Assembly (NCBI GenBank): GCA_964591855.1
Contig: CAZQAZ010000001.1
Span: 7,591 to 71,590, forward strand
DNA: 64,000 bases
Direction of reading: 5' to 3'
From: Candidatus Woesearchaeota archaeon
GTDB lineage: Archaea > Nanobdellota > Nanobdellia > CAZCWL01 > CAZQAZ01
Shown: piece by piece, positions 2,488 to 59,147 of the stretch
Position numbering within the stretch: position 1 is the stretch's first letter
Layout: the number at the start of each line of letters is the position of its first letter
Program-made: the position numbers and the translations under genes
The notes under the pieces: model-generated
Seen by the model: only the letters and a program-made list of their open reading frames with translations
The model's database searches: none
Told to the model about the DNA's origin: nothing

Positions 2488-5400
2488 ATGGTCTTACTCT
2501 TATTAGTCTTGCTAATCTCAATTAGCTTTGCTGCTGAGATTATAGAGTTTGGAACGCCAAAAGTGTATTCTATTCACATAATGGATGCTAAAGGCCAGGC
2601 CCTCCAAGCAGATGTGGAGTTGAGGTCGGTAGCAGGAAGTTTAGTTACGCAATCAAGACTAAGACAAGGTACATATGACCTCTATGTTAAGCCAAAAGAC
2701 ATTCCTGTTAAGGAGATTGTCTTTAAGAAGGTTAACATTAATGGGGACTTAAGTCTTAAGCTCGACACTTTTGACAGTAAGAGATTTGTCCAAACGTATG
2801 CTATAGATCCTTCTCTTATTAACTTTGAGACAGCTGAAGTAAAAGTAACAGCAAAAGGAAAGGCATTGTACAAGTGTAAGGATTGGGATTTTGATGCAAA
2901 GGAGTGTAGAGGGATATGGGTTAAAATTAAAGACCTCACTCCTGGAGAGGAATATACCTTAACCCTCACGAAAGACGATCCTGGATTTGGGGAGGGAGAT
3001 GCTAAATCCTTGCCATCGTCTGCTTTGTACAATGGAGCGAACGTAACTACAAATGTTACAACCTCCGACAATGTATACGTTGATGTGAATGGAACACTTT
3101 ACATAAATTGGACAAATGATCTGCCGCCAACAAACATCCTCTCTTCAAATGTAACTTTTGAGATGTATAACAATCAGTCAGTGGATGTTTATTTGTTCAA
3201 CAGGAGCACATCATCTTGGGATCTCTTATCCACAATTCAAAGCAACATCACAGAAAGATATGTTAAAGTCTCACTTCCTCTTAAAACAAGCGATGATGCA
3301 AATTTAATACAGATAGCTGTCAACTCAACAAATGCTACAATTGACTATACCTTCCTAGAGATGGAGTATGAAAACATAGCACCGGAAGCAAAAGGTGCTA
3401 TATTCGTTGTTGACTCCTTACCAAGCGATCCAGATTCATGGACGGAATCAAATATAGATTCCTCAGATGATTCTATCTCTTGGAGTACAAAAGATAAGTC
3501 CCAAGACGCAATAATTGGTTTTTATTCAGCCCATGCTTCCTCTACTACTAAGGAGTTTTATTATCCAAAGTCCTTTGCAGCAAGTTGGAATCTTACTGAC
3601 TATGAGCAAGGTACAATAAACTTTTATGCTAAGGCATCCTCAAGCAAGACCTTGGATTTGGACTTGTTCGATTCTGATGGTGACGCTTTGGTGGCAACTT
3701 TAAATTTGACACAAGACTGGAAGTTTTTCTCAATAGAATTAGATAAGATGAGATATGACTGTACTATAGGGAATGGGAACTGTGATGGATTTAACTACGG
3801 TGATGTCTCAGGAGTATACATTTGGGATGGATCATCTGGATCTACTTTTGATGTTGATGTCTACATAGATGGGCTTCATTTTGATAAGGCTTTATTGTAT
3901 GGAAGGACTGTAACAGCCAAAACATATTACTACGATTATGATGGAGATCCAGAATCTGGTTCCCAATTAAATTGGTATAATAATTCTAACTACGTATCGA
4001 GTGATGAGACATATACGGTAACCTCCATAAAAGGTAACAACCTAACCCTAGAATACATTCCTAGTGATGGTACAGACTATGGACAAGGTTTTAACTACAC
4101 TAAAACGATAGATAACACACCTCCAATGGCATATGCACCAACAATCTCTCCTTCAGAAGTATACACAGACACAGACATTGCCTGTCAACCGGAAGGTGCA
4201 ACCGATGTAGATGGAGATGAGGTTTTAACGGCTATAAAATGGTACATAAACAACAGCGAAGTACTTCCAGCTGTTTTGGAGAGTTACGATAGCTTTGGAG
4301 ATCACTATGGTGTTTGTGCGAAGAATGCAACGGACTTTTATTTAACTTACTGGGTTGTTAAGACAGAAATTATCTTCGACCCACGTACTGGAAAGTCGTC
4401 GACGAAGACAACATATAACTCAAAGATTAGAGAATTTTCAAGCGTATCTGGTTCTAAGGATGTTGCTACAATAACTTCTTATGATTACTATCCTAAAGCA
4501 ATAGCATATGATGGCCATAATATTTGGTTTTATGGATCACAGAATGGCAAGATTTATAGGTTTAATATAACTTCAGGTTCTGTTGATGCTAACTTCTCTG
4601 TTGGATTCGGACCCGTGGACATGGCGTGGAATGGAACCTATCTTTATGTGTCAGATAGCTTGAATGTATATAGAGTTAATACAACTAAAGCAATACAATA
4701 CGGCAATCTTGAAAGTGGAGTAGATGCAGCAGTAGTTCTCCCTGTTAAACACAGCAGTCTGGCGATAAACTCATCTAAGTACATAGTAACAGACAGCGAT
4801 CTAATCTATGTAATTGATGAGAATTTAAGTGTTAAAGAAGTGTATCCATTTACTGATGTGAAAGAGTCGGGAGGAAATTCATTTGCAGCAAGAGGAATAA
4901 CATTTAACGAAGGTTTGTGGGCATTGTACTCAAGTAGTTCTGGTGGTTATCTAGACAAGATAAACTTAACACAACTTTATATACTCAATTCAACCTTCAC
5001 AAAACACTTTGATGTTGTAGCATGTGGTGTGCTTCCCTTCGACGGGGAAGATAAAGGTGAAGTTAATGCTTCTTCAATTAATGTGTTAAACACCCCTCCA
5101 AGCATAGATAACTGTTCCATAAATCCTTCACAAGCATACACAGATTCTAACTTAACAGCATCATCCATTGGTTATTACGATAAAGATGGGGATGTAGAAT
5201 CCAATTCCTTCTGTTCATGGTATGTGAATGACAATTTTATTGAGAACTCAACGCAGTTGAGTTACACAAACTTCAACAAACATGATGTTGTGAAGTGTAT
5301 ATACTATCCAAGCGATGGTTACGATTATGGTTCTCCTAAAGAATGTACTACAACAATCTTAAACTCGGAGCCCACCATTACCTCAACAAGCCCGGCTAAC

Positions 5401-8400
5401 GAGTCCATAGTTAACTCATTAGACTTTAGTATCACAGCTACTGACAAAGACTCAGACTCTTTGACATACTTCTTTTATGTAGATCAAACAGATGGAACAA
5501 CACTTGTGGGAACGAGTAGCGATGGTACATTCACATACACTGCTTCAGATGGAACATACTTCTGGAGAGTTAACGTCTCGGACGGAGAGGTTAACACCAC
5601 CTCTCAATTGTACAAAGTAACACTTGACACAGTTAAACCAAGCTCATCCCATATCTCTGTTAATGATACGCATGTAGGATCGTATGCAAAGTTCAGTGCA
5701 TTATGGAATGAGAATGTAGACCTTGATTATTTTATATTCTCTACAAATAACACAGGAGTGTGGGTTAATGATACAGCCGTAAGCATAAGCGGGACATCAA
5801 ACTACACAAATGTAACAAAGACCCTTAATTCAACAAGAGGTTTGGAGGTTGATTGGATAATATATGTTTGGGATAAAGCTGGGAACATGAACTCCACAGG
5901 CATACAGAAGTTGATAACAACCAATAATCCACCAGAAGCAAGGAATGTTGTGATTAAGCCAACTGACGATGTATACCCTTACACAAACCTTACTGGGGAA
6001 TATATGTACTATGATCAAGAAGGAGATCCAGAATCTGGATCTTTGTACAGATGGTACAAGAATGGAAAGCTTCTTTCAGGCGAGACGTCAACAACTCTTG
6101 AGGCTAACTTCACAGTTGGTGACAATATAACTTTTGAAGTCACACCTTACGATGGATTTGACTATGGGCAACCTGTCAATTACACGGTTACAGTAAAGTC
6201 AACATGTGAAGCCCCATCAGAAGGACAGTGGAGGATATACAATGAGTCTTGTTCCCTTACGAATGTTGATGTGGTTGTTGACGGATTGAAAGTGGATAAG
6301 GACTCCTCGCTGGAGATTAGAGACTCAAAATATACTTTGATAATCAATGGAAACTTAACTGTGGATGGAAACTTAACGATTAGTAACTCAACGGTTAAGT
6401 TTAACTGTACCTCGAGTGGTGCTTGTGGTGTGCTTGTCGAGTCCACAGGAAATCTTATCGTTGATAACGATTCTTACATTACATCTCTGAATAGCAACAC
6501 TTTCTTCTTCAAGGTTTATGGAAAGCTTCATGCGAACAACTCCACATTCGAGAAGCTTTACCTTGATGCTACCACAATACATGGAGGTATACAACTTTAT
6601 TCCAATTCAAATGTAGTAAAGAATTCTTTATTCAAGCAAAGTGATGGAGCAATGTATGCTTCTTGGGCAAATAGTACAATCTTTGAAGGGAATACTATAC
6701 TACAAAGTTATAATGCAACGAAGGGATACAACTTTGAAGCCGTTGGAATCTATGTAGAGAACTCAAAGAATTTGAGCATTAAGGGCAATGCTCTTAGCGG
6801 AACTCCTTGGGGAATAGCTTTATACAAAGTACAATCCTCGTACGTTGAAGACAATGTCATCGAAAACACAACCGGAGGAATCTACATTATAGAAACAAAG
6901 GATTTAACGGTGAAAAACAATACAATCTCAAAGATACAAGACGCAGCAGTCCAAACAGGGGATACAGACTCTAATGAGCTTTATGGTAATGCATTTACAA
7001 TGGAGAGCTCCGAGAACATTTCTCTAAGTGGGAATAATGTGAGTGATGGTGATAGAGATTCGGTTAGTGTTTATTCGCTTAGAAATAGTGGGTCGGACAT
7101 AAGCATATCTGAAGATAGGGCAGATGGTGTACGTTCTATTTTAGTTTTTGGTTATAGCCCTACAATTAGTAATCTCTCAATTAAGAGATGTACATTCACG
7201 AATGTTGGTGGGATAGATACAGGCACAGATTCTGTGCTATTAAATTACCTACTTGACTCAAACACTATATCCTTTAGCTCTGGTGGGATAGAAATACTTC
7301 ATGCAAACTCGTATGGTGTGATAAATAACAATACCTTGTCCACACCTTCTGACTTGGATTATTTAGTTTACATAAGAAAGGGAAACGTAACAAACAATGA
7401 TCTTCTGGCCAAGAAAGCTGTTCTTATTACAGAAAATATTACTTTAACAAATAATGTTATCCACTCCCAAGCAAGTGGAAGTAGAGGTATAGATTGTTCA
7501 AGTGGAGTTGGCACCATTGAAAACAATACAATCTACAATTACCAATATGGTGTGTATTATAGAGGTTGTTCATACAACCTAACTAATAATGAGATCTACA
7601 ACAATACTTATGGAGTATATCAGCCACCACAGAGTGTGAGATTAAAGGACAACCACATCTATGAGAACACATATGGAATATACACCTCCCAAGGCTTAGA
7701 TTCTGTAAACAACACATTCTGTAACAATACTATCACAGACTTGTACTCAAATTACAACAATAGTCTAGCAGCGTTCAACACATCAAATTATTTCTGCACA
7801 GGAAGCAAATCGGGTTATAGAGCGTACAATATCTTTAACAATTATAGGGTGTATGTTGTAGACCAAAACAATGAACCAGTTGGAGACGCTGTGGTTAGAA
7901 TTGAGAACTCAACTTCAGATCTTGTATCACAACTAACCACTTATTCATCCGGTTACACACCTTACACCAACATAAAGACGGATATACTCTACAACAATGG
8001 ACTACTTGTTGCAAGCAATCCACATACTCTTAAAGTAAGTAAGCCATATTACTACTCCAACACAACATCAACTAATATAACCTCAAACTCACAGACAGAC
8101 ACAGTCTCAATAACTTATGCTCCGTGTACCTACTTCGGTGGAGATTGGATTTTAATAGAGTCTTGTACTTTAAACAACGAAGACCTCACAATAAATGGCA
8201 ACATAGAAGTCCCCGAGAACATAACACTCACTCTTAACAGTACAACTTTGAGAATGAACTCTTCTTACGACGGAGAGCATAACATTACTGTATATGGTAA
8301 GCTGATAACTCTTAACAATTCGCACATAACAAATGTAACGAGCAGGTATGATCTCTTTGTTTATGGAAATACAAGCATAGACAATACGACCCTAGATAAT

Positions 8401-11400
8401 TACAGGGTCTTTGAGATATGGTCTATGAATAGCAACGTCACTAATTCCATACTGAAAGGTGGGGACGATGGTTTAAGGACGTACTCTTCGGATCTAAACC
8501 TTGAAAACGTAACAGTTACAAGCATAGGAACATCCATTTACGCTCACAACTCACAATTAAACTTAAACAGTCTAACTTTAACCAACAGTAGTGAAGGAAT
8601 ATTCTCATTCAATTCAGCCATTAATGCCACTGACTTGAAGGTTGACAACAACACCAAAGCTATAACCTTATCAAAATCAGACCTTGTGTTCACAGGTGGG
8701 AATGTCTCTTACAATGGTAGAGGAATTTATGCTGTAGATTCAAATGTATCTGTGCAATCCACAGCATTCTGTAACAACTCCCAGCAACATGTTTACGCTT
8801 TGAACACGACATTTAATACTAGCGCGTTTGGGACGTCAAACAGTTTCTGTTCAGGCGATGCAACAAAAGAGAGAGCGAGGAAAGAGTGGTACTATAGCGT
8901 TAAGGTTGTGGATTCCATAGGACAACCTATAGAAGGAGCAAAGGTGGAGTTATACAACTCAACTTCAGATTTGATTTTCACCAAGTATACAAACTCTCAG
9001 GGAACCTTTGATAAAGTTAATATAACTCAAGATTATATAAGCAGGGACGGGACTTATTATTCTTCTACACCACACACAGTAACTGCTTCTAAAGAGGCAT
9101 TCCAAACTAATACTTCAACGACTGACATAAATACCTCAAAGGTGGACACATTAACATTACAAGACACATGTTCTTATCCATCAGATGGAGATTGGATTAT
9201 AGATACGAACACATCCTGTGTTGGTAGAAACATAGTCATAAATGGAAACGTTACTGTTAACAATGGTGTGAAATTAATCTTGCGTAATTCCACATTATCT
9301 ATTAATGCTTCTGAGTACATCCCTGCAGTAACAGAGATTAAGATAGATGTTCCAGACTCTTTTACTGTAAGGGACGAAACAAGTAAGGTCAACTTAACAT
9401 GCGAGAGACCTGTTGATATATGGTGGGAGATTGTTGCTCCAGATGGAACTACTAAGAGATTCTCTGGTGGCGAAGGTATAGCTTACTCTTGGGGTGCTAT
9501 AGATCTTCTTACATCTCAGAACTTATACTATAACTTAACAAATAAAGTTGTGCAACAAGCAGTGTATTATGATAATACTTTTGGTGGATTGGGTATACTG
9601 TCTAACGGAACTTGGACATTAAGATTAACTAATTATAACACACCAAACAACTGTGTTATACATAGTTGGAACATAACTTTAAAAGACGAGAATGGAGTAG
9701 ATCATGTCTATAACAACACAACAGAAATAAAAGTCAAGCAGCCAAAACTCACTAATGTAATGAGTTATGGAGATTTGGAGCTTGTAGGTTCGAACATAAA
9801 GTCAAGTAATGACCATTATTTCATGTTTAAAGTGTATGGGCATATATACTCGGACAATACAAAGTTTGAAGACCTAGCAACTGTGAAGTATGGTGTTAAA
9901 TACATAGGTGGAGCAGCGTGGCCACTAGTGAACGGTGGAAATCTTGGTTCGTTAGGACCTGGTGGTCTTCAGATATACTCTGACAATAACACAATTAGAA
10001 ATTCTAACATCTCAAATACGCAAGAAAGAACTTTATGGTTAGAAGGGTCAAGCTTCAACTTGATAGAGAACAATTACTTCTACTCAAGAGGTTATGGTAT
10101 AGTCTTAGCATCGGCCTACAATGATAACCCTACAGCTAATAATACATTTAGAAACAATGTTATCATTGGAGGAAAGGGGAACGGTGGAAAGGATGCTTTA
10201 GACGAAAAGGTTTATGCTTACAACAACACATTCTATAATAACACATTTATTGGGTATTTGAACGATAGGGCAGTCCAGTCTTCTAATAACGCTTTCCTCA
10301 GACCTTACCCTAACTACTTCATGAGTAATATATTTAAAAATGGAGTGTACGACCAAATGGGTAAAGCAAGGTTCATAAACAACACATTCTATGGTGTAGG
10401 ATTTAAGATCCCGCCACTCGGTTACTCTTACACTTCTGAGTGTTACATAATTAATAACACATTTAACAACTCAAGGTTAGACATTGATCCATATAGAGGA
10501 GGATCATGGATAAAGATTGTTAATAATACATTTATTAGTCCTTCTACACTTCAAGTTGGGGGAGGCTACAGCTACTTGTCCAACATATTGTTTGCTAATA
10601 ACACAATTAACAACACCGAGAAAGTCTATTTCTTCAGAACAAGCTCGCTTAATGTGACTAACAATAAAGTAACTAACGCAAGAATGGTGATGACACTTAT
10701 ACGCAATGGACTTATAAGTGAAAATAAAATAATAAACGCCACAAAGCAAGATGGAGCACTAGAGGTTCTTAACTCCCATGCGAACATAACAAATAATACA
10801 ATACTTAATAGTCCAGCTAATGGGATATATGGCGCGTTGACTTCTTTCTCCTACACATCACACTTAAACATAACAGGAAATAGAATATGTAATAGTAGCG
10901 GTTATGGTATCTATCTTAAAGATGTAACATACGACCCAGCCGACTTATCTGCCAGTAATGACTTTGCATGTGAGTACAATCATAAAGGAAGGGTTTCTGT
11001 TGCATGGAGCATTAAAGCCCATACAATGGATCAAAATGGAAACGATCTTCCTGGAGCAGAGGTTACAGCAGTAAACAACACAAACGATAAGGTGTTCTCA
11101 TCGTATACAGAATACCTTGTAGATAACTGTAAAGACCAGTCTGAGTGGACGACTGTCAACATGACAATGGTGAAAGGAACGTCCTATGGTGGTTACTGGA
11201 TGATGAATGCTACGGGAGATAATGCTTTAGCACACAGATCACTTGATGGAGCGAGCGGTTATGATTACATAATGTATAGTTCTCACTGGCCAGGTTATGG
11301 TATTCCTTACTATGTAAACATCACTTACATGACAGGACCAATGGATGTGTACCTCATCAACGACACAAAAGGAACACGTTACCTTAAGATAGATAGGTAT

Positions 11401-14400
11401 AGGACTCTTGATAGGATATACTTCTACCAACCACAAGCGGGAAAGATAATGTATATAGGTTATATATACTTAGTAGGGAATACAACTGGCCAAGGAACTT
11501 CTGATTGGAAAGAAGTTGTTGAATACACGGTCAATAACTCTGGTTATAAGGTGGATACAACACCTATAGTCTTTACCGCTCATAGAAAGGGTTACAATGG
11601 AAACGTCGTGAGCTTATCTTCCTTCTCAGGACCAACCACAGTGAATATCACACTTTCTGAAAATCCTTGTGCTTACAATGGAGATGGTGACTGGAACATC
11701 AATACGACATGTGACATCCATGACATCGACGAGAATATATTTGGTAACTTAAACATTCAAACGGCAGGTAATGCTACATTCTCTAGATCCAAGTTGAGTA
11801 TTTACTCAGGAAGTGACGGGGTAAATGGCGTAAGTAATGTTGGAATACTACGTATGATAGACTCATGGGTAAAAAACATGGTAAGAGGTTATAGGATAAA
11901 GTTTGAGTCGTCTGGAGAGCTTTTGGAGTTGAACAACACAAACATAACACACTCGGCTGGTGTGAAACTCTTAGAGAATGGAAAGGCAATAATTCATGGA
12001 GGCAATATAACTGATAGTTCTTCACATGGATTGATGCTCTACAACTCAACAGATAACCTCGTCCAAGGAACATTATTCTCGTCTAGTAATGGTTATGGTA
12101 TATACGCCTTAAATTCATCCTTGAACAAAGACGTTGCAAACCTAAGCTCGTTTGTATCTAACAGCCTTGGGAGAGTTAAGGTAGATTGGTACCTAAAAGT
12201 ACGCACAGAGGATGAGACAGGTACTCCTATTGAATCTGCTGATGTGAAGGTTATAGATCAATACAACACTACAACATCTCTTTCAACGGATGCAAATGGT
12301 GAAACTCCTACAACTATCTTTACAGAATACATTGTGAATAACAGTGGTGGTATGGAGGAGTACTCCCCATACAAGATAAGCGCAAGCAAAACCAATCACA
12401 AGTCTAACTCTACGACTACGGATTTAAATGAGTCCAAAGTTGTATTGTTGATCCTCAATACGGACTATACTTCACCAAGTAAAGCCCCTGTTTTGACGGT
12501 TAAGTCTACAAACACATCTGATCCTACAGGGTGGTCTAGTGAGTATGTAAATCTAACTTGGACAGAAGCATTGGACGACAGGGGTATTTATTTCTATGAG
12601 GTTGTAAGAAATGAAGGAGCAAATAGTGTCTCCTTAGCAAATGTCTCAAACTCCACATTCAATTACGTAGACACAGCTGTACAATCTGACAAAGAGTACT
12701 CTTATTACATAGTTGCATACGACAGAGCTTACAATACTAACACTTCCAATGTTGAGAGTATTAAGGTAGATAAGAATGCACCAAATATTACTGTAACAGA
12801 TCCAGCTAATGGATCAACCGTATCATCTCCAGTGACCTTTAAGGTTAGTTATAGCGATTACTCTGAAACAAATTGTTACATAGCATTCGATTCGAACACC
12901 ACATACAACTTGATGTCAAACTCCGGATTAACAAGTGGTGTTGCAACCTACTCTGAAGACTTTACGGAGGGAACACACACTGCACATATAAAATGTGTGG
13001 ATTACTTAGGTCATGAAAATAGCACAAATGTAACCTTCTATAATATAGTACCACCAGGTGGCGTTTATGATGAAACCCCACCTACAACCTACTGTGATTC
13101 AGATGGACTGTACCACAATGAGACTTATACTGTTAACTTAACTTGTAACGACGAAGACTTTTCATACATGCAGTATTGTTACTCAACAGATACATGTGAA
13201 CCAACCACGTCAACAACTGACAACCCAGTTAGATTAACATTTGAGCCGGAGAATGCAAACTACACCATAAGATTTAGGTCCATAGACACAAATGGTAACG
13301 AAGAGAGTATTAAAGAATGTATTGTTAGGATGGTAAGCTGTACACCATTTGAGAGATTCGACCCAGAGAAAGGATGTGTGCCTTTGGAATTACCTGACTG
13401 TAGCTCACAGTGTGCAGCTTATGACGACTGGTACTTTAAGGACTTAAGTTGTCATTGTTACAATTATGAGACTCTTTATCCAGATGCAAGAGTGGAACCA
13501 ACGAATGGAACATCGAATGTGACATTTATGTATTATGTAGCCTCACAGGATAGGACAGTTGTAACAAGAATGTACATCAACGGAGAGTTAGTGGGTGGGA
13601 TAGAGCCACCACCATTACCTCCATTGCCACCACTTCCAAAGCCAGGTATACATCCTATAGCAGTGGAGAGCACACAAACCCTTCAAGCTAAAAGCACAAC
13701 AAATGCATATACGAGTAGAACATTTAGTCCTTCGTTCAATAACTTCACTGTATTCCAGGCTGGAAAGATAATTGATATGGATACAAAAGAAGATGGATTT
13801 GGGGAGTCATTTGCTGACGTCTCAGATTGGGACGCAATCAACGGAGAAATCTCAACAGATGGAGACGTGGCTACCTTATCCTGTAATAGTGGGACAGCAA
13901 CATTTGAGACAGACATACCTAAGTACTATTCTAACATTGAGATCAAAGGAGACTATGTTGACGTAGAACAATCAGATGGGAAGTTAAAGATAGTCCTACA
14001 GTGTCCAAAGACTGTCCACTTAGATGCAATAAGATTATACGACTCAATAACCGAGTATGATCCATGGACACAACCTTATGAGTACAGAATCCCTGTGAGG
14101 GTTGTATCTTCACCTACCATTAAGCATTACATTAGAGTACCATCTAACTCCATTGTAACAAATGAATATGGCAATCCAACGTCAATAACGTCTGAAGGGT
14201 TGTATTATATTTACTTTAACGCATCTTCATTCACTAACTTAGACCTTCCAGACGACTTAGTAGCCATACCTTCTGCAGTTCAGAAAATACAAATTGAAAA
14301 CTATCCAGTTGTGGACGACATACTCTTCAATGTGGAGAGTGTGAATTACTCTTCAATAATAATAAACTATAATGCTTCGTATGCTACAGGCGACGATAGA

Positions 14401-16957: not shown

Positions 16958-17015
16958 TGGTCAAGGATGCGAGGTTCTGGCCCTCGTGACCCCGGTTCGA
17001 ATCCGGGCGGGGCTA
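16943..17015 (+). tRNA. tRNA-Gln(CTG).
   Basis: Acceptor stem agccccg/cggggct with A1-U72 (common for archaeal tRNA-Gln). Anticodon stem cgagg/cctcg with loop ttCTGgc. T arm ccggTTCGAATccgg. Discriminator a. Confidence 0.85.
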
Positions 17016-36018: not shown

Positions 36019-36097
36019 GAGTTCTTCACCTCAAAACCAAATCAAATTTGAAGAAAGTGTTAGAGCATTGCCCTTTCCCTCGCTATGGGAAGTACTC

Positions 36098-46586: not shown

Positions 46587-46606
46587 CTTATAAATATTTA
46601 TAAAGG
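46587..46606. promoter_or_regulatory. Palindromic A/T TATA-like element in the divergent secF / envelope-operon intergenic region (possible bidirectional promoter).
   Basis: cttataaatatttataaagg; the core ttataaat|atttataa is a perfect 16-nt palindrome. It sits about 25 nt upstream of secF ATG (minus strand) and about 22 nt upstream of ATG 46627 (plus strand). Confidence 0.4.
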
Positions 46607-46626
46607 TGGAGCTTCTTGTAAGAAAT

Positions 46627-47838: not shown

Positions 47839-49904
47839 GTATGGCTAAGAAAGGTATCAAGGACATAATAAAGGAACATCCTGAAGACATAATAGGGATG
47901 GCTGCAGCTCCAGAAGCTGCAGCACCTAAGCTTGTGAAGGATGTACTTGAGACTCAGAAGGAGACTGCTGAGGCTGAGAAGAAAGCAGCCAAAGCTAAGG
48001 AGGCTGCCGCGAAAAGTCAACCCTCTGGAGGTGGAGGAGGTTCTTCTGGTGGTGGATTTGGCGGTGTAGGTGGGGGAAGATTTAATAGAGTAGGCATTTG
48101 GGCAGGTTTAGGTATAGTTTTTATATTTATCATAATTATACTTATAGGAGCGATGGTCCCAACTGCAAGACATATGCTCTCCACACAAGGGAGCTTTAGC
48201 TTTGGGCTAGGAGAACTCATAAAACAAATAGCAGGTATTTCTGTAGTTGGACCCGTTGAGACGGAAAAGGAAGTTAAATCCGGACCAACACTAGCTACAA
48301 CACCCTTCTATTCATTTAGGATAGATTCTGTAGAAGTATCTCCAATGAAAGGGCAGATGTTCTTCCCAGGTGGTTCTGTAACAGCTAAGAACTTTGACAT
48401 AGAAAAAGGAAGCACATACGAAGTTAGGAAGGCAGGAGAGACAATACTAACCAAAACTGCAAGTGAGAGTATCACAGCCCAAGCTGCCTGTGACTCTGCT
48501 GTTAATGAGCTAAATGGTGATGATAACCCAGACAACGATGTCACACCAGATGATATAGTCGTAGTTTATAGTGGTATGTACTATCCTTGTGGCGATGATC
48601 ATGAAATAAAGTATATAAGCTCGGAAGGTGCAGGCCAAACTTTTTCCATCAGAGTTCTTGTTAGGAATACAGGAGACAAAGAGGCTGACAATATGACTTT
48701 AGTTATACTCCCAAAGCCAAAGGATTCGTGGTGTAACATTGGCGGGGAGGATAAAATGTTATATAAGCTTGGTTCTGGAGAGTCAACAGAGTTCTGTGAC
48801 ACAGTATACCTAGATGAGAGTGGAGGTTATACTAACTTCGACGCGTGTGCTAAAAGCTTTACATTGGAGAAAGCAGGTACATACTTCTCATCTTGTAAAG
48901 TTAAGTTTGGATGCGTGAATAACTTTGTAGGGAAAGTCTCGGGGATATTTGAGAATACAGGTTGTGAATGTGACCCTTCGGCTGAAGAAGGATGTGGGTG
49001 GTTAAATAATGTTTACACTCCAAATGTTTATGCAAGACTTGTTGGACCATACGTCTCTACAACAAGACTTGATATACAGTTCATGGATGGAGATTATTAT
49101 GACATCCTCACGAATCAAAACTTGTTTTATCCGTTTGTAAGAACTGCTACTAATTCTTGGGGTGCAGTAACTCTTTATCTTGATACAGCAAGTGAAAAAC
49201 AGCCAATCTTATCCTTTAAGAGCGCTCCTATGGATACGTTCACTTTAAGAGTAAAATACGATGTCCCTCAAAAGAAAAGTGGAAGAATATTAGAGCCATT
49301 TACTGAGAACATACCAGGAACCAAGTCAGCAACGTATGGAGACATACAAAAGATCTTGAATAGAAAGAACAGTGATGTATGGCCATGGGAAGGTGATGCA
49401 ACCACAACTTTCAACAAGTACTACAAAGAAAGACTATACATGTTGATACCATCTACACTTTTGTTCATTGGGACTCCTTATGAGAATCAGTTTAAACACA
49501 AAGGAGGTGAATTTAAGAATAGCATAGTGATTAACAATTTGGTATGTGGAGACTATGTGTATGATAAACTTTGTGATCAAAATTCAGACGAATATAAAAA
49601 CTTCATAAGTAGAAACCTTGAGTTTAAGAAGGTAGCAGACAGTTACTGTAGAGAAACTGCTAAGTCAAATGATGGGGAATATAAAGGTATAGGTTACCTC
49701 GTTTGTGAGGTTTATGATGGCAAGATAGGAAACATTGACTACGAGTTAAAGGAAGGTGAGGAATATCAGTTCCCACTTCATGTACCTAACTTGAATGGAG
49801 AATCTGTTAACAGAGTGACATACTTAATAAGGGCTGATTTATTATACTACTTTGTATATGAAAAGGACCAACAAAATCCAATTGTTATATACAGCAAAAT
49901 TTAG
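47835..49904 (+). CDS. Membrane protein with A/E/K-rich and Gly-rich cytosolic N-terminus, single TM and large Cys-containing ectodomain (hypothetical).
   Basis: 689 aa. GTG 47835 overlaps the previous stop; ATG 47841 is an alternative start. SGGGGGSSGGGFGGVGGGRF, then TM IWAGLGIVFIFIIIILIGAMV, then a roughly 580-aa ectodomain. Confidence 0.5.
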   Translation: MSMAKKGIKDIIKEHPEDIIGMAAAPEAAAPKLVKDVLETQKETAEAEKKAAKAKEAAAKSQPSGGGGGSSGGGFGGVGGGRFNRVGIWAGLGIVFIFIIIILIGAMVPTARHMLSTQGSFSFGLGELIKQIAGISVVGPVETEKEVKSGPTLATTPFYSFRIDSVEVSPMKGQMFFPGGSVTAKNFDIEKGSTYEVRKAGETILTKTASESITAQAACDSAVNELNGDDNPDNDVTPDDIVVVYSGMYYPCGDDHEIKYISSEGAGQTFSIRVLVRNTGDKEADNMTLVILPKPKDSWCNIGGEDKMLYKLGSGESTEFCDTVYLDESGGYTNFDACAKSFTLEKAGTYFSSCKVKFGCVNNFVGKVSGIFENTGCECDPSAEEGCGWLNNVYTPNVYARLVGPYVSTTRLDIQFMDGDYYDILTNQNLFYPFVRTATNSWGAVTLYLDTASEKQPILSFKSAPMDTFTLRVKYDVPQKKSGRILEPFTENIPGTKSATYGDIQKILNRKNSDVWPWEGDATTTFNKYYKERLYMLIPSTLLFIGTPYENQFKHKGGEFKNSIVINNLVCGDYVYDKLCDQNSDEYKNFISRNLEFKKVADSYCRETAKSNDGEYKGIGYLVCEVYDGKIGNIDYELKEGEEYQFPLHVPNLNGESVNRVTYLIRADLLYYFVYEKDQQNPIVIYSKI

Positions 49905-49932
49905 GTGATGCGAAATCAAGAAAGAACTCTTT

Positions 49933-51024
49933 GTGTTTGGAGTGGTTTTGGTAGCCATGCTTGTAATGGGCTGTATAGGTGTTGGTCCGACTGAAGAAAA
50001 GGAAACAGTCCTTAGACCAAATCAAGGTGTTGGCGTCGTACCTGGTGGAGTTTATGTTTTAGACTCCAAGGTAAAGCCTGGTGCTATAACATCCGTAGTT
50101 GTAAAAGTAAGAAATAATTTAGAAGGACAGCCGGCTAATAACATAGTAGTTACTTTAGATAATGTAGCCCCCCTAAGAATACTTTGTAGGGGTGGAAGTG
50201 GTGCGGTGGAAGAGTTCTTTGATAACTTCCCAAATTATAAAGAGGGATACGAAGCTTGTGGAAGAGATTACTCTCTAGACTTAGATTCCAATTTAAAACT
50301 TAATCAGCATGGTGTGGTTAAACTTGATCCTGGAGAGGAGGTTGAGTTTATCTGGCCAATACGCACGCCGGACAGAGCAGTTCTCGCAGGAATGAAATAT
50401 GAGCACACTCTTTACTACACAATAGATTATGACTACAAGCTTAAAGCACAGGAAAGTATTGTTTACCTATCAAACCAAGAGTACTTGAGATTGAAGCAGG
50501 AGAACAAAACCTTAAATTATCCATCAACATTTAGACAGACAGCAGGTGAGTTCAAGCTCTACCCACAAACTGTTAATCCATTCCTTTACTATCCATCGCA
50601 AGGTATAGCCCAAGTTGCATCCATTAACTACAACATAGAAAACAACGGAGACGGATTCATACCTCCAGATTCAAAGCTTGTTATAGTTCTTCAGTATCCT
50701 AAAGAGATGGAACCTGACGAAACTTACTCTGAAAAGAGATGGATAAAGGGAACAGACTTAGATAATGAGAGAATCAAATCCATATTGAAGCACTTCCCAG
50801 ACATAAACTTAAATAGAATACTTTACAAAGAACTTGATCCTTCCTTCTTAAGGAAGGGCTTTAGGTATCCAATCTCTGCACCTTTAACTCTAACTCAAGA
50901 CGAGCTTAACTCCCTTATAGAAAATAGCATCCCTAGTAAAACTTATAATATTCAAGTTTATGTATTTTATAAGTACAGGTTTGAAAAATCAAGCAAAATA
51001 ACGATCTATCCTGTAGAAATATAA
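49933..51024 (+). CDS. Putative lipoprotein with CARDB-like N-terminal domain.
   Basis: 363 aa. Signal peptide with lipobox-like LVMGC. GGVYVLDSKVKPGAITSVVVKVRNNLEGQPANNIVVTLDN resembles a CARDB fold signature. Confidence 0.5.
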   Translation: MFGVVLVAMLVMGCIGVGPTEEKETVLRPNQGVGVVPGGVYVLDSKVKPGAITSVVVKVRNNLEGQPANNIVVTLDNVAPLRILCRGGSGAVEEFFDNFPNYKEGYEACGRDYSLDLDSNLKLNQHGVVKLDPGEEVEFIWPIRTPDRAVLAGMKYEHTLYYTIDYDYKLKAQESIVYLSNQEYLRLKQENKTLNYPSTFRQTAGEFKLYPQTVNPFLYYPSQGIAQVASINYNIENNGDGFIPPDSKLVIVLQYPKEMEPDETYSEKRWIKGTDLDNERIKSILKHFPDINLNRILYKELDPSFLRKGFRYPISAPLTLTQDELNSLIENSIPSKTYNIQVYVFYKYRFEKSSKITIYPVEI

Positions 51025-51037
51025 GGAGGAAAAAAGA

Positions 51038-51994
51038 ATGAGAAATGAAATAATTGTTTTTGTGGCAGCCATACTAGTGCTTTCAGTAATGTACGGTTGT
51101 GTAGACGTTAAATCTTTTATACCTGGCGGAGAGAAGGAACAACAGCAGCAACCAACAGGCGGTAGAGTAGAGTACTCTAAGGCTGTTTTTGGGGAGTCAA
51201 TGGATGTGACAGAACTTTATCCCGGACAAGCAACAACTCTCTTAGTAACAATTAATAACACATGGGAAAACCCTATCAAAAATGTAAAGATTCAGTTGAA
51301 GGGAGCAAGCTTTGTAGTCAGCAGTAGTGTTTTGGACACGATGGTAAGCGTTGACAAGAAAGAAGCAACAGTAAACAATGTAAACCCTGGAGCTTATTCC
51401 CAAAGATCTTTTGTGATAAGAGTTCCAAGAAAGTTAGTTGAGCGAGTAAATGTTTACCCAAGAATCTGCTTCGACTACAATCAAACAATAGCTAAGGACA
51501 TCGTCCTTGTCCCAGACTCAGCAACACAAGTTACCACACCCTCACATTACACAAATGAACCCCTAAGTGTTAGGATTCCAACAAATAAAATACTAGCAAC
51601 AGAGTCTATTGTTGGTGAAGGAGGAACAGAGTCATACTTAAGTTACACAGTTGGTGCACAAAGCGTTGATAGCATTGAGAAGCTTTACAACTTCACATTT
51701 GATATAAGTACAGACGATTACTTGGGAGGCATTAACAGCATATCTCTTGCAGAACTTTCTTCGGACAATGGAGACTTTGCTTGTGAGGAGTACACGTTCA
51801 CAGATGATCAGAAAAGAGAAAGGTGTTACCTTACTAAAGAATACGAACCACAGATAAAAACATTATCAGGAAGTGTAGCAGTAAGCATTGATAATCCAGT
51901 AGAGTCTGAAACATATGAAAACGTAGAGATTGTAGCAGAAGGAAGGTACTGTGTCAACCTTCCAACTATAACAATAAATGTGAAGAAAGTATGA
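51038..51994 (+). CDS. Putative lipoprotein with CARDB-like domain; paralog of the next gene.
   Basis: 318 aa. Signal with SVMYGC. LYPGQATTLLVTINNTWENPIKNVKIQLKG. Shares the (P/A)RICFDY motif with ORF 51991. Confidence 0.5.
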   Translation: MRNEIIVFVAAILVLSVMYGCVDVKSFIPGGEKEQQQQPTGGRVEYSKAVFGESMDVTELYPGQATTLLVTINNTWENPIKNVKIQLKGASFVVSSSVLDTMVSVDKKEATVNNVNPGAYSQRSFVIRVPRKLVERVNVYPRICFDYNQTIAKDIVLVPDSATQVTTPSHYTNEPLSVRIPTNKILATESIVGEGGTESYLSYTVGAQSVDSIEKLYNFTFDISTDDYLGGINSISLAELSSDNGDFACEEYTFTDDQKRERCYLTKEYEPQIKTLSGSVAVSIDNPVESETYENVEIVAEGRYCVNLPTITINVKKV

Positions 51995-53142
51995 GCCAGA
52001 AAAACCTTTTATTTTTTATTATTTTAATTTCAGTAGTGGTTATTCTATCAGGTTGTGTTAACCCTCCAAAGACCGAAGAGAAAGAAGGACCAAGTTATAT
52101 TCCTTCTGTCTTCTCAGCTAATTTAACATTCAGTAAACCTTTAAGTGGGGGAAGACTTGTCTTAGCACCTGGAGAGCAAGTCACTGCATATCTTACATTC
52201 GCCAACAAGGGTAACGCTCCAGCAAGAAATGTTAAGGCTATTCTTTATGGATGCAACTTAGATATCAGTTCGAACACAGGTGAAGAGGTATATACTTTAG
52301 ATAGTGTTAATCCAGACGATACGAAGACACTAACGTGGCAGATTGTAGTCCCTGAGGACTATACTGGCAAATGTTCACTCACTGCAAGAATTTGTTTCGA
52401 CTACACAACAGAAGGATATAAAGAGATTGAGATAGGAAAACAAGGAGAGGTGTCTTCAAGTAGGAGTGTGGAGTACACAAGCCCAGGCCCTATAAACTTA
52501 TCTTTCAACTTTGCAGATAGATATGTGGTATACAAAGATTACTCTCCCATAACCTTTAAGATCAAATACAAGAATGTTGGTGGAGGAAGAATACAATACG
52601 TTGGAGAGCCAGATAAGACAGATCATGTTGACTACATAGAAATGACTGTAAGAGACGGTGCAGCTTTCTTAGGCGGCGACTTCAGTGAATGGACGCATGT
52701 TGAAATCCCAAAGTACTACTCCAGTTTACAAGACGCATTCTATAAGGAAGAATTTGTACCAGCAGGACTATCTGGAGAATACAACTTCGAGCAGGTATTC
52801 AATAGAGAAGTATATGACATGTACATAAAAGATAAATACACTACACCAGAAGATATTCTCGAGCAGGAAGAAGTTGACTTTGGATTCTACACAATGAACT
52901 ACACACTCAGTGAAGATAGTCCAGCATGGAACTTGAGCATGTGGTATGATGAGGACCACGAAGGTAAAGGTTGGGCGGATAGGAACGAGCTTAAGTTTGT
53001 GGGTAATACCTTAGAAAAGAGAGCTACTTTTTATATTAATAAGTCAGCTGTAGAAGGATCTGAAACATTCAATGTTGGTACCAAAATAAAGTATTCTTAC
53101 TGTATTACAACAGGGACAACAAGTGTTGTTGTAGAAGAATGA
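51991..53142 (+). CDS. Putative lipoprotein with CARDB-like domain; paralog of the previous gene.
   Basis: 383 aa. Signal with ILSGC. LAPGEQVTAYLTFANKGNAPARNVKAILYG, ARICFDY. Start overlaps the previous stop (ATGA). Confidence 0.5.
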   Translation: MSQKNLLFFIILISVVVILSGCVNPPKTEEKEGPSYIPSVFSANLTFSKPLSGGRLVLAPGEQVTAYLTFANKGNAPARNVKAILYGCNLDISSNTGEEVYTLDSVNPDDTKTLTWQIVVPEDYTGKCSLTARICFDYTTEGYKEIEIGKQGEVSSSRSVEYTSPGPINLSFNFADRYVVYKDYSPITFKIKYKNVGGGRIQYVGEPDKTDHVDYIEMTVRDGAAFLGGDFSEWTHVEIPKYYSSLQDAFYKEEFVPAGLSGEYNFEQVFNREVYDMYIKDKYTTPEDILEQEEVDFGFYTMNYTLSEDSPAWNLSMWYDEDHEGKGWADRNELKFVGNTLEKRATFYINKSAVEGSETFNVGTKIKYSYCITTGTTSVVVEE

Positions 53143-53144
53143 GC

Positions 53145-54800: not shown

Positions 54801-54882
54801 ACCTATTGTACGATAACAGGGAATATAAATCTTACTAAATTTTCCGGTAATATTTATATAGCAGAATTGTTCTATATCACTA

Positions 54883-57800
54883 TGGACTTATATAAAAACA
54901 TCTTTTCCTTGGTTGCTTTTCTCATTTTACTAGGAGCAATATTTGCAACTTCGGATGTGGATAGTATATCTTTTGTACCTACTTATTCTTCTGGACATTG
55001 CGGGGATACTTTAGTTTCTGGAGATGTCATAACAGAAGTCGTGAACATATCTGTAGCTCATTCAGGAGATTCTATTTACAATGCAACTATTAAATTACTC
55101 AATACGACACAGAGTGATTTTATAATTAATCAAGTTTTATCGAATCCTGAGAACTTGACATGTACAAAGCAAAGTGATTATGTGATAGAGTGTGTAAATA
55201 GTACAGATTCAGGACTGGTTTCGGCTGTCCCATTAAATATCTCTTTGAATATGAGTATTAATAGGAGCAGCTTGTGTTCTCTTGATAAGGTTTTCACGTA
55301 CACATTTGAAATAAATTTAACGAACAAAACAAGTATTATTAATGGGTCAAGTGATGTGCTTCAATTAGATGCACAAAAGCCTTATTTCGCTGGGCAGATA
55401 AACATTCTGACACAATACCCGAATGTGTCTTATTATAATGGTTCCGTTTATTACATAAAAGGTGGCTACAATGCAAGTATAGCTTCAGATGATGCATTTT
55501 CTGGTATAGCAAGTTGTAATTATACGATTAATGCATCGGGGCAACCTGTTGTTTGGGCACTTTCTACATATAATGGAACACATTGTGTAGTTTCTGATAT
55601 CTCATTTGGCTCGGAGACAGAGCACTTATTAAGCTTTAGGGTTAGGGACAAAGCATTTAACTTTAATGAGAGCTCTGCTGTTACATTAGTGGAAGACGTC
55701 TCACCACCCACTATAGATTTTGTAAGTCCGGTATTAACGTATGTTGGTTCCGGCAAACTCTTAAAGGTAAACGTAACTTTTGTGGATAAAGGATCTGGTG
55801 TAAATACAAGTTCTGTACTCATAACAAATAATGAATCCCTACCGTTTGTAGGAAGTACACAGTGTACTTCTGGTGCAGGCGTTGTTTATTGTAATAATTC
55901 TATTGATACATCCGGTTTTGCAGGTATGTTGAATATAAGTGCATCGATTAAGGATAATGTCCAGAATGCAAACCTATCAAGTGTGGTTGTAAAGGTATTG
56001 CATGTTAGGGTAGACAATATTACAGACCAGGATAATAATGTGCAGAGCTTAGTTGGTCTTGCAACAAATTGGGTAAAGCTAAAGGTGAACGCTACGAATA
56101 ATACGCAGATTGGTGTTAATATCACTCATAAGGGGATATGTTTAGGTCAAGATAATGTGCCTATGCAGTATAATGACACCACTGGTTTATGGGAATATAA
56201 TTGTAGTTTAAATCACTCGGCTATGGTATCTGGGGAACAAAATGTTTCTGTGTTTGTATACCCTCTTGTAGACGAGAATGCAATAAATGATACAAGAAAC
56301 TTCACAATAAACTATGATGACCAGAGACCTGTTGTTGTATTTGACTGGTGGGACACTGAAGATATAGATGGTAGTAGTGTTAGAATACCTTCTCCTTTAT
56401 CTATACTCAGTAATCCAGACTTCTTTTTCTCACCGAATGATAATGAGATATGGTTTGCTGTCAATGTTACAGACAATATTGGGATTGATAGAGTGGTAGT
56501 TAACTTAAGTTCGATAAATATGTCCAATCCTGGAAATACATGCTATGGTTTGCTGGATCTTACGTACAATAGCACTACATCGTTGTGGGAAGGAAATTGT
56601 TCACTAGGTGTATTCAACGAGAGTGATTTGAACAGGAATGATCCATATGGTGGGCCATTACAATCATCAGATATAATCATATCTGTGTACGACACTGCTG
56701 GTAATGAGAACTGGTTTTATAATTCAAGCGGTACTGAAACGAGCTCCATACAAAGCGTTTGTCCGTATGGGATTAACCCACAAGACTACCCTGAATGTTT
56801 GCAGCCATTTATACCAGTAATAATACATGACTTAGGTACTCCAAATAGTTTAGACCCATGTATGCATTTTGGTCCCGAAACTACAAACTTTAATAATGTT
56901 CTCAATTTCTCAAGTGTTAACTTAGTACTTGAAATACAATTGAACATGTCTTGCTTTGATCCATCCCTACCAAGTGACTTTATAACTATGAATAAATTTG
57001 AATTCCAGTCATTGGACTTCTTTGACCAACAGACAGTAGCAAAGATGAGCTTGCTTCCTTCGGCTTTACAGGTGAATATTACGCCCCCAGGAATGTTCGG
57101 AGACTCAAGAATTTATATAAATTCAACTTTATTCTCGGAACTCAATACGAATTCAACTATAACTTTGTACCACCTTCCATTTATTTCCATGCCTACCATA
57201 GTTGCAGACCCCGGAGCTAGGGGTTATAATCAAACTAGCATTAGTTGGGTTTCAGGCTATGATCCAATATTTGGAGTTTGGACCGGAAATCTAACATTTA
57301 AGGTATATGGATTCTCAGGATATAATATAACAGATAATACACCCCCAACTATAGAATTTAATTATCCATTGAATAATACGAAGTACATGCCACCCGTTAA
57401 CAATGTTAATGTAACTATTAATGGTACGGGTACTCCATTAAGCTTTGTGAATATAACTCTCGATACAGCAAGTTATATTTACAATGCTACAAGTGATGTA
57501 AATACCGCTAATTGTACCTCTGCTAACAATGAGACATTTTATTGTAACCTAACAGACTTAGGAATAGAGTCTGGAACGCATACGGTCAGGGTTGTGGCCT
57601 ATGACTATGGTGGAGAATATCCAGGAAATAATAATTCATCTGAAATAAGTTTTTCCATAGACTCGATACCTCCAACAATATCTAACATAAGTGTTTCCAA
57701 CATAACTAATTCTTCTACTGCAATAATCTTTAGTACGAATGAGTTATCAACTTGTTTTGTTAAGTTTGGGGAGTCCAGTAGTCTTGGAGAGCTAACACCT

Positions 57801-59147
57801 TCTATACAGAATACTACATTTAGTATAAATTTAGTCGGTTTAAACTCATCAGTTCTATATTACTATTCGGTAAACTGTACGGATCTCGCAGGCAACTCTG
57901 TGGAGTCATCTATTTCAAACTTTACGACAGCTGAGAGTGTGTACGAAACCCTTGATAATTCCTCTACGAATTATGTAACTATAAATGTTACACAAAATGG
58001 AGTAGTATACAAGTTGGTGGAGTTTGAATTGAATGTTAAGGAAAGCACTTCTGCAAGTATAAATGTCACGAAATACAGCAGTAATCCTGAGTCTGTGGGT
58101 TTGGGTGTTAACTCTCTTAATAAGTATATCTCTATAGACTCAAATTTAAATTCGAGTAAGATAGACTATGTCATTATTAAAGTTTACTACACAGATTCGG
58201 AGGTACCAGAGGGTGTAGACGAATCTTCACTGAGATTATACTGGTTTAATGAGTCAAGTAACGAGTGGGAAAGAGTTCCTGGTGGGGTGGATACTGTAAA
58301 TAATTATGTTTGGGGGAACACTACACACTTTAGTACTTATGGTATAGGAGGTTTGCTAGCAAATGGTCAAAGTTGTTCCTCAAATTCAGAATGCGCTTCA
58401 GGTATCTGTTGTGAGGGTTTATGTTCGTCTACATGTGGAGCCGAAGCAGAAACAGGAGGAGCGGGAGCTGGGGTAGATTTAGATAGCTATTTCTGGTTCT
58501 TTAAGAGTAATGTGCAGGCAGGAGAGACTGTGGATATAGATGTAAATAAACCTGAAAATCCTATTGGTAGCATAAAAATTAGGTTTGGCACAAGTGTAGA
58601 CAATATAAGGATTAATATCCTTAAACTACACTACAAGCCAATGGGGCTTCCTGACTTGTTGGATGTTTATTCTTATATAAGTATCTTACACTCAGGCCTA
58701 GAAGAACAGAATATCGAGAAAGCAGAGATAAACTTTAAGGTGGACAAGAGATGGCTTTTAGATAGAGGTTATGATAAGTTGGGTATTGTTCTTGCAAGAT
58801 ATGAGAAGGGAGAGTGGACGGATCTAAGTACGGACTTTGTTAAGGAGGATAGCGATTACTATTACTACAAAGCGGAGACTCCTGGATTTTCGTATTTCGC
58901 AATAAGGTATGAAGAGCCGGAGGGCGTGGAGGAGCAACCACGACCTACCGTTGTTGAGCCAACAGGGCCAACAAAGGAAGAGGAAGAGTCAGCCAAGCAG
59001 CCGGTAAAGAATGTAACAGAGCAGGTGGTAAGTGAGGAAAAGAAGCATAATTATGTTTATACAGTAATACTCATATTACTTATTGTGTTAATCTCAGCCT
59101 TTCTCTTTGCGATAAAGGGAAGGTTCTTAGCGAAGGGTAGACGCTAA
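54883..59147 (+). CDS. Giant type-I membrane-anchored, sequon-dense cell-surface protein (1421 aa; S-layer/adhesin-like).
   Basis: Start ATG 54883 (MDLYKNIFSLVAFLILLGAIFATS, signal peptide). The track start 54738 would overlap eif2a. Very dense NxT/S sequons. Cys-rich EGF-like GQSCSSNSECASGICCEGLCSSTCG. An E/K/P/T-rich stalk. C-terminal TM VYTVILILLIVLISAFLFAI plus basic tail KGRFLAKGRR. Confidence 0.75.

Follow-up and report, generated by a model that had tools for sequence, protein, structure and literature searches.

Little has been established on the means by which DPANN archaea recognise their partner cells and stay attached to them, and few of the lineages have been brought into culture. 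Three described groups of archaeal surface proteins come closest to the locus studied here. The adhesin-like proteins (ALPs) of Methanobrevibacter and Methanosphaera combine a membrane anchor with a right-handed β-helix and archaeal Big domains, their coverage by Pfam being poor (PMC11532034). The nanohaloarchaeal SPEARE proteins are giant surface proteins of 8880-9409 amino acids (aa) and proposed host binders (PMC10266531; Hamm et al. 2019 as cited there). The predicted surface proteins of Nanobdella aerobiophila are glycosylated, immunoglobulin (Ig)-rich and pectin-lyase-like (bioRxiv 10.1101/2023.10.27.564410). Here, we analysed a 64-kb stretch of DNA with 38% G+C (hereafter, the window) from Candidatus Woesearchaeota archaeon (GCA_964591855.1, contig CAZQAZ010000001.1, positions 7,591 to 71,590), in which a first-pass annotation made from the letters alone had singled out three giant open reading frames (ORF1, ORF2 and ORF3), all on the plus strand. 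We conclude that the three ORFs probably encode lineage-specific giant cell-surface glycoproteins of a DPANN archaeon, most likely adhesin-like contact proteins that are diversified by recombination.

Results

Three giant frames recur intact in other assemblies

The three genes are located as follows:

2488-15552 (+): ORF1, counted from its ATG; 4354 aa, 480 kDa; predicted secreted giant protein
19240-26352 (+): ORF2; 2370 aa, 262 kDa
54882-59147 (+): ORF3; 1421 aa, 156 kDa; predicted signal peptide and sequon-dense ectodomain

Each is a single uninterrupted frame and together they total 24,444 nucleotides (nt), i.e. 38.2% of the window, in line with the share of about 38% given in the first-pass annotation. 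The coordinates reported there were correct for ORF1 and ORF2, while the start given for ORF3 (54883) was one base off and out of frame, the correct position being 54882. The frame of ORF1 is open from a TTG at 2461, ahead of the ATG at 2488. All three products are acidic, with isoelectric points (pI) of 4.4-4.6 (4.6 for ORF1).

Frames of this size might be assembly artefacts in which repeats, or sequences from mixed strains, were joined into chimeras: they stem from a metagenome-assembled genome and encode modular proteins, and an exact look-up of the ORF1 and ORF2 sequences gave no match. Neither tandem repeats nor long near-identical repeats were found in the three ORFs, which disposes of an origin from repeat chimeras, and the internal modules of ORF1 share a mutual identity of just 25-44%. 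The ORF3 protein has an identical copy on one ENA contig and on one JGI contig, and ORF2 has a counterpart of the same length in another assembly (P0012; 2367 of 2370 residues, or 99.9%, identical). For ORF1, an ortholog of 4342 aa (P0158) is encoded in GCA_053993735.1, hereafter the sister strain; it matches residues 14-4354 in a single alignment at 88% identity and is collinear across 4341 residues with zero stops. The gene order DUF87, ORF1, rhomboid, FmrO, MgtE, aIF-2B and ORF2 is the same in both genomes, the ORF2 ortholog of the sister strain being interrupted by a contig end. Exact look-ups of the rhomboid, aIF-2B and P0012 gave no match. The ratio of nonsynonymous to synonymous divergence (dN/dS) against this strain is 0.15-0.17 for whole genes (ORF1, 0.17) and 0.10-0.18 in every block, showing purifying selection in each of them. 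Because repeats are absent, the frames recur in independent assemblies, the ORF1 ortholog is collinear and dN/dS is low, an artefact is essentially excluded, and we regard it as exceedingly improbable and already close to refuted. Other assemblies thus show intact frames, where the first-pass annotation had named frameshifts or stops as the outcome that would speak against its proposal.

The three proteins carry export-type N-termini and an excess of sequons

Hydrophobic segments were located with a Kyte-Doolittle hydropathy scan, which does not predict signal cleavage. Secretion-type N-terminal segments were found on all three ORFs, as had been claimed for them, and ORF3 carries in addition the C-terminal transmembrane (TM) segment and basic tail that had been described:

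2488-2532 (+): signal-peptide-like hydrophobic N-terminus of ORF1, MVLLLLVLLISISFA/AE (hydropathy)
59058-59144 (+): C-terminal TM segment (aa 1393-1411) and basic tail KGRFLAKGRR of ORF3 (hydropathy)

The N-terminal segment is the sole hydrophobic segment of ORF1. In-frame TTG starts at 2461 and 2470 would give its signal peptide a basic n-region (MIGLKLRKE and MKLRKE, respectively), and the region upstream of ORF1 is conserved in the sister strain. ORF2 also has a sole hydrophobic segment (aa 7-25); its N-terminus consists of a 20-residue h-region followed by TGYATWA/KD, and can be read equally well as a signal-anchor that stays uncleaved or as a long signal peptide that is removed. Of the three different anchoring modes that had been assigned to the proteins, the positions of the hydrophobic segments hold, and the modes are a plausible reading of the hydropathy, in which ORF2 may bear a long signal peptide instead of a signal-anchor. 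Among the top 144 relatives found through a module common to ORF1 and ORF2 (see below), hydrophobic segments are confined to the N-terminus in 77 and lie at both termini in 12, while 17 end in a C-terminal TM segment with a basic tail. Since the same three patterns recur among these relatives, the three-way mix of anchoring patterns is plausible but ordinary for the family.

N-x-S/T sequons (x being any residue other than P) number 166 in ORF1, 99 in ORF2 and 73 in ORF3, i.e. 3.8, 4.2 and 5.1 per 100 aa. Composition shuffles lead one to expect 80, 38 and 26, so that the excess is about twofold (z = 10-12), and cytoplasmic neighbours contain 0-1 sequons per 100 aa. The excess is specific to the register: in ORF1, 166 sequons compare with 84 occurrences of the reverse motif, 110 in the +1 register and 69 in the +3 register, and ORF2 and ORF3 show the same pattern, control motifs being 1.5 to 3 times rarer than sequons. 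The residue at position +2 in ORF1 is Thr in 118 cases vs Ser in 48. What had been called an extraordinary sequon density is thus real, both in its level (z>10) and in its register. Within the variable cassettes described below, the sequon Asn is retained against the sister strain in 77/89 cases vs 94/135 for other Asn residues (Fisher p=0.004). Substrates of AglB would be expected to combine a sequon excess on exported domains with sequon conservation, and the ORFs show both. Sequon statistics and sequon retention together suggest that the ORF products are N-glycosylated.

ORF1 and ORF2 are mosaics between near-identical strains

Flanking and housekeeping genes are 97-99.8% identical to the sister strain, with a background synonymous divergence (dS) of 0.05-0.20. 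Compared to this, ORF1 and ORF2 are mosaics with both protein ends conserved, in which long stretches of ~95-97% nt identity alternate with cassettes of mostly 66-75% identity, and the ORF3 locus differs as a whole:

3964-5205 (+): variable cassette 1 of ORF1 (aa ~493-906; Ig-like repeats and an unassigned β-rich region), 74% nt identity vs ~95% in the flanks
8284-12033 (+): variable cassette 2 of ORF1 (aa ~1933-3182; β-helix blocks 2-4), 71-83% nt identity
20266-21855 (+): variable cassette of ORF2 (aa ~343-872; module copies 2-3), 66-73% nt identity
54802-59173 (no strand): strain-variable slot; where the window has the whole ORF3 segment, GCA_053993735.1 has ~330 bp (strain alignment; flanks 98% identical)

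Cassette 1 of ORF1 has a dS of 0.93 and a dN/dS of 0.18, both computed on the wider block aa 451-900. Cassette 2, which encloses a conserved island at 8731-8958, has a dS of 1.47 and a dN/dS of 0.11, and the ORF2 cassette a dS of 1.69 and a dN/dS of 0.10 (computed on aa 301-900). Positive selection as the cause of this divergence was rejected, given dN/dS values of 0.10-0.18 beside a ten-fold raised dS. Because dS in the cassettes is raised ten-fold while purifying selection persists, our data point to imported old divergent alleles and not to rapid adaptive point change.

In the sister strain, the slot occupied by ORF3 holds a ~100-aa Cys-rich ORF (L027 9435-9752, minus strand) with a signal-like N-terminus (…CTSDEDCVVSGCNGEVCSN…), on the strand opposite to ORF3. 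The slot therefore appears to hold alternative secreted proteins in different strains. The proposal of the first-pass annotation that the three proteins form one combined apparatus is not supported: housekeeping genes lie between the three, which form units of their own, and a strain with 98% identical flanking DNA lacks ORF3 at this locus.

ORF1 and ORF2 belong to an uncurated module family

A module of ~150 aa is common to ORF1 (aa 20-175) and ORF2 (three copies). It is marked by the pattern YKCKDWDF...C.G.W and two invariant Cys residues:

2545-3012 (+): N-terminal YKCKDWDF module of ORF1 (alignment, profile search)
19843-22050 (+): three YKCKDWDF module copies of ORF2 (aa 202-342, 369-515 and 781-937; jackhmmer, blastp vs ORF1)

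AlphaFold2 (AF2) predicts an all-β module with a mean predicted local distance difference test score (pLDDT) of 86. The module has no match in Pfam and no fold match in the PDB below E 0.05. ORF2 and ORF3 in general gave almost no Pfam matches and nothing useful among PDB sequences. A profile search, exhaustive over 1.84 billion cluster representatives, retrieved 1286 of them at E<=1e-3, a number that falls to 904 at E<=1e-10. The top 144 relatives have a median length of 2110 aa, with 21 of >=4000 aa, and a median of 4.3 sequons per 100 aa; up to seven module copies are found in a protein. Named carriers belong to Nanoarchaeota, Micrarchaeia and Aenigmarchaeota, and related metagenome loci contain two or three giant module ORFs in tandem. 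A 234-aa signal-bearing protein encoded in the window at 30939-31643 (+) shares its C-terminal ~80 aa, at 35-42% identity, with a domain of many giant family proteins. In several giants, this domain lies directly N-terminal of the YKCKDWDF module (in P0014, aa 599-673, the module covering 684-847).

A second conserved element lies at the end of ORF2 and is followed by a group of small genes:

25600-26340 (+): C-terminal tandem Ig-like unit of ORF2 (aa 2121-2367; AF2 model, pLDDT 86.5)
26359-27219 (+): predicted free-standing secreted paralog of this unit, 286 aa, 61% identical (blastp, hydropathy)
25834-25964 (+): 131-nt tract of ORF2 identical to paralog positions 26695-26825 (DNA comparison)
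27227-29831 (+): three small sequon-bearing membrane or secreted ORFs (529, 154 and 185 aa), all of them signal-like at the N-terminus and ending in a TM segment

At least 10 other family members close with the same unit, which stops 2-6 residues short of their C-terminus. Foldseek returned generic tandem β-sandwiches (RbmA, CfaE) at a template modelling (TM)-score of about 0.3, a level that is no evidence of a function shared with these proteins. The perfect 131-nt tract is embedded in DNA that is otherwise only ~50-60% identical between ORF2 and the paralog. Such a tract in divergent flanks is a signature of gene conversion, and suggests a recent conversion event between ORF2 and its small paralog. 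Among the downstream genes, the 529-aa multi-TM protein (27227-28816, +) has a sub-threshold match to the NCBIfam choice-of-anchor T model (E 1e-5) and one to PGF-pre-PGF (25 bits vs a cut-off of 28). Its last element is a TM helix, which recalls the way ORF3 is built towards its C-terminus.

ORF1 is a mosaic of β-rich domains

The central and C-terminal parts of ORF1 are organized as follows:

6184-12480 (+): four to five β-helix blocks, each followed by a transthyretin-like (CarboxypepD_reg) domain (Pfam Beta_helix/NosD, NCBIfam para_beta_helix)
13609-13638 (+): PPLPPLPPLP linker, aa 3708-3717 (sequence)
12985-14877 (+): Cys-rich region with clusters at aa 3500-3700 and 3900-4130 (sequence)

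Pfam Beta_helix/NosD models match five stretches of ORF1 (best E 3e-28), while the CarboxypepD_reg match is just at threshold (32.4 bits vs 32.3). Comparison of ORF1 with itself reveals diverged units of β-helix plus transthyretin-like domain at ~aa 1233-3331, whose repeats are 25-35% identical, and three Ig-like repeats of ~100 aa upstream of the β-helix blocks. Ig-like matches in the ORFs are to Big_13, Big_9 and Big_7, all sub-threshold, with Big_13 among those of ORF1. The mosaic that had been read from the translation, i.e. β-helices, transthyretin-like inserts, linker and Cys-rich stretches, was thus largely recovered; its fibronectin type III (FN3) domain was not found by the domain searches, which gave the weak Ig-like (Big_*) matches instead. 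Likewise, ORF1 has no TM segment beyond its signal, as stated before, but it does not end Cys-rich: the clusters are internal and do not extend into the last ~220 aa.

ORF3 carries a PGF-pre-PGF domain without a PGF-CTERM signal

In ORF3, a curated domain was found ahead of the C-terminal helix:

58503-58904 (+): PGF-pre-PGF domain (TIGR04213) of ORF3, aa 1208-1341, 98.2 bits vs a cut-off of 28

It is preceded by a Cys cluster. The PGF-pre-PGF domain usually precedes the PGF-CTERM signal of proteins processed by archaeosortase A, e.g. the haloarchaeal S-layer glycoprotein. Like these substrates, ORF3 has TIGR04213 and then a linker, a TM helix and a basic tail. Unlike them, it has no PGF tripeptide at the helix (tail ...KKHNYVYTVILILLIVLISAFLFAIKGRFLAKGRR) and no match to the PGF-CTERM model TIGR04126 even at E<=10, and an assignment of ORF3 as a PGF-CTERM protein was therefore rejected. 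None of the window ORFs of >=150 aa belongs to an exosortase or archaeosortase family. Judging from its C-terminal sequence, ORF3 looks like a plain type I protein with a C-terminal anchor.

Genomic neighbourhood

The neighbouring genes are archaeal and include L15e, diphthamide synthase, aIF-2B, aIF-2 alpha, PAC2, SecD/SecF and a fused PriS-PriL primase. A 382-aa fragment that is 97% identical to ORF2 has been deposited as Candidatus Aenigmarchaeota archaeon. These genes and this record support a DPANN host that bears the label Aenigmarchaeota. No close relative was detected among GTDB species representatives by an exact 39-mer scan and an aIF-2B peptide scan. The primase is encoded at 59443-60711 (+), where a single ORF of 422 aa has matches to the two DNA primase subunits, small and large. 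A PriS-PriL fusion has been described in Nanoarchaeum.

Upstream of ORF1, a DUF87/HerA-type ATPase gene (613-1905, -) diverges from it, with tRNA-Ser at 1944-2029 (+) in between; in the sister strain, an additional 130-aa ORF of the YjbQ family is called between the two. The arrangement is reminiscent of the ATPases beside the giant genes of nanohaloarchaea. We considered the ATPase as a SPEARE-like secretion partner and dropped it, as related metagenome loci contain no homolog. The rhomboid gene that starts 7 nt after ORF1 was considered as a dedicated processing protease. It encodes a generic rhomboid below the rhombosortase cut-off, ORF1 has no TM segment to cut, and related metagenome loci lack a rhomboid homolog. 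Both neighbours are probably incidental.

A tRNA-Gln(CTG) was called at 16943-17015 (+) by ARAGORN and Rfam (58 bits). It straddles the stop of the FmrO-like methyltransferase (ORF end 16957) and the annotated ATG of MgtE (16967), and the same gene calls are made in the sister strain. Either MgtE starts further downstream or the tRNA overlaps coding sequence. A solitary 5S rRNA gene lies at 36057-36172 (-), neither 16S nor 23S rRNA being encoded in the 64 kb.

Small secreted or anchored proteins with a sequon excess (z 3.5-6.5) are further encoded at 32556-33899 (-), 33927-34577 (-) and 61815-62645 (+). The first of these has a CarboxypepD_reg domain, two PKD/Ig-like repeats shared with ORF1 and ORF2, a C-terminal TM segment and the tail KSKRK. 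Finally, five consecutive ORFs without a Pfam family (46606-53142, +; 403-410, 687-689, 363, 318 and 383 aa) adjoin the divergent SecF/SecD genes. The first two have one TM segment each and the last three have lipobox-like N-termini (…VMGC, …MYGC and …LSGC). The cluster is 95.6-99.8% identical in the sister strain and may represent a conserved envelope module, and with it an alternative S-layer or envelope candidate.

Discussion

An envelope or adhesion role for secreted, sequon-dense giant surface proteins, as envisaged by the first-pass annotation, is the best reading of our data. Each protein would be exported by the Sec pathway through its N-terminal hydrophobic signal, as judged by hydropathy, and many of its N-x-S/T sites would be glycosylated by an archaeal oligosaccharyltransferase. 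ORF3 would be displayed as a type I membrane protein via its C-terminal helix and basic tail, and ORF2 held either by an uncleaved N-terminal anchor or by the conserved C-terminal tandem-Ig unit. Because ORF1 has no anchor of its own, it would be retained non-covalently or released; retention at the surface, of ORF1 above all, is a prediction from sequence features. The ectodomains would then be strings of β-rich modules, in which the YKCKDWDF module is combined with right-handed β-helices and with sandwiches of transthyretin-like and Ig-like type. Where β-rich modules of this kind occur in other surface proteins, they bind glycans and proteins on other cells, as is established for the folds, and by analogy the modules of the present proteins may bind such ligands on host or other cells. 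As the comparison with the sister strain shows, homologous recombination replaces cassettes inside ORF1 and ORF2 by divergent alleles of old origin, brings in or deletes whole genes such as ORF3, and converts sequence between ORF2 and its small neighbour. A likely outcome is an altered set of binding partners or binders of the cell, e.g. the host partner or viruses, and this may be the selective reason for the variation of cassettes and genes.

Several observations weigh against this interpretation. Adhesion is argued from analogy of folds, a host-associated lifestyle is assumed from the phylum, and the strain comparison covers one sister strain. No oligosaccharyltransferase gene (STT3/AglB) lies within the window, no recognisable retention signal was found in ORF1, and ~40% of ORF1 as well as most of ORF2 and ORF3 have no curated family match. 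Moreover, the cytoplasmic N-terminal half of MgtE (17078-17491, +; aa 38-175) is only ~75% identical in nt to the sister strain vs 94% for the membrane half, and the whole-gene dS of MgtE is 0.44 vs 0.05-0.15 for neighbour genes. Recombination may therefore be regional rather than targeted to surface genes.

Two other functions have to be weighed against adhesion. The right-handed β-helix fold houses pectate lyases, polygalacturonases and phage tailspike depolymerases, and ORF1 contains such blocks repeatedly. ORF1 could accordingly be mainly an extracellular array of polysaccharide-degrading enzymes, whose β-helix blocks would cleave polysaccharides, as lyases or hydrolases, to nourish the cell or to break down the wall of a host; pectin-lyase-like surface proteins have indeed been proposed for Nanobdella (bioRxiv 10.1101/2023.10.27.564410). 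However, the matches are limited to the generic repeat models Beta_helix, NosD and para_beta_helix, and no catalytic family such as pectate lyase or glycoside hydrolase was found at E 0.05 in tiles of 500 aa. In addition, ORF1 has no sequence relatives in the PDB except NosD (E 0.006), and ORF2 and ORF3 have no β-helix, which makes an enzyme array distinctly improbable.

One or more of the ORFs, above all ORF3, might instead be a structural, lattice-forming S-layer glycoprotein held by a C-terminal helix. ORF3 has a length of 1421 aa, the highest sequon density of the three, a predicted signal peptide, the PGF-pre-PGF domain and, at its end, a stalk rich in Pro and Glu that leads to the TM helix and the basic tail, and the S-layer candidates of DPANN archaea are Ig-rich glycoproteins without homology to known S-layer families (bioRxiv 10.1101/2023.10.27.564410). 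Yet an S-layer gene should be a very highly expressed core gene kept in close relatives, and ORF3 is missing at its locus in the sister strain despite flanks that are 98% identical, which would be odd for a main wall protein; ORF1 and ORF2 are kept, but their 2370 and 4354 aa are far above the known sizes of lattice subunits. No S-layer model of Pfam or NCBIfam was matched, halo_surf_glyco reaching only E 0.24 on the ORF3 tail. The first-pass annotation had named well-known S-layer proteins in a named close relative as the domain-search outcome that would speak against it, and no named S-layer family was matched. The five-gene cluster beside SecDF is at least as good an envelope candidate. We therefore consider an S-layer role unlikely and prefer the reading as adhesin-like contact proteins.

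A more far-reaching model would treat the YKCKDWDF module and the C-terminal tandem-Ig unit as parts of an undescribed DPANN-wide surface system, in which the giants dock via their C-terminal unit on a scaffold built from the small paralog, while the recombining internal cassettes determine which host or virus is recognised. We hold this to be rather doubtful; if true, these genes would be specificity determinants of DPANN symbiosis. Short of this, the locus provides candidates for partner contact, i.e. giant predicted glycoproteins in which the putative binding parts vary between strains with ~98% identity elsewhere, and a module family of about a thousand clusters that lies outside the curated libraries. 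If the cassettes track host or virus range, they would be usable as markers that link DPANN strains to their partners in metagenomes.

Compared with the described systems, the present proteins resemble in architecture the methanogen ALPs, with which they share a right-handed β-helix, occasional carboxypeptidase-regulatory-like domains, poor Pfam coverage and a proposed binding to other microbes; a terminal hydrophobic segment as putative membrane anchor and putative Ig-like domains may be further points in common. The β-helix is confined to ORF1, being absent from ORF2 and ORF3, and the repeated Big domains of ALPs correspond here to sub-threshold Big_* matches and the modelled tandem Ig-like unit of ORF2. 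Larger in size (up to 4354 aa) and of DPANN origin, the present proteins further differ from ALPs, as these are described, by the YKCKDWDF module and by the conserved C-terminal tandem-Ig unit. With SPEARE proteins, they have in common that they are giant, acidic, predicted Sec-exported and putatively Ig-rich, derive from small DPANN genomes, are present in a strain-specific manner and are proposed to contact hosts. SPEARE proteins differ in having C-terminal TM segments, a VirB4/TraG-like ATPase domain and a neighbouring VirB4-like ATPase; Pfam searches found no ATPase domain in ORF1, ORF2 or ORF3. The proteins of Nanobdella aerobiophila, likened to ours by description, also comprise many sequons, Ig-like folds, β-helix (pectin-lyase-like) and lectin-like extracellular proteins, and a C-terminal TM segment in some, but are about 1000 aa in length. 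The genes of the window thus seem to resemble known giant and adhesin-like archaeal surface proteins in their workings, with no homology shown to any named family. On present evidence, the locus is a further example of a known phenomenon and not a new mechanism. What it adds is the YKCKDWDF family, which lacks curation, a C-terminal tandem-Ig unit that also exists as a free-standing paralog, and variation at the level of cassettes and whole genes between near-identical strains.

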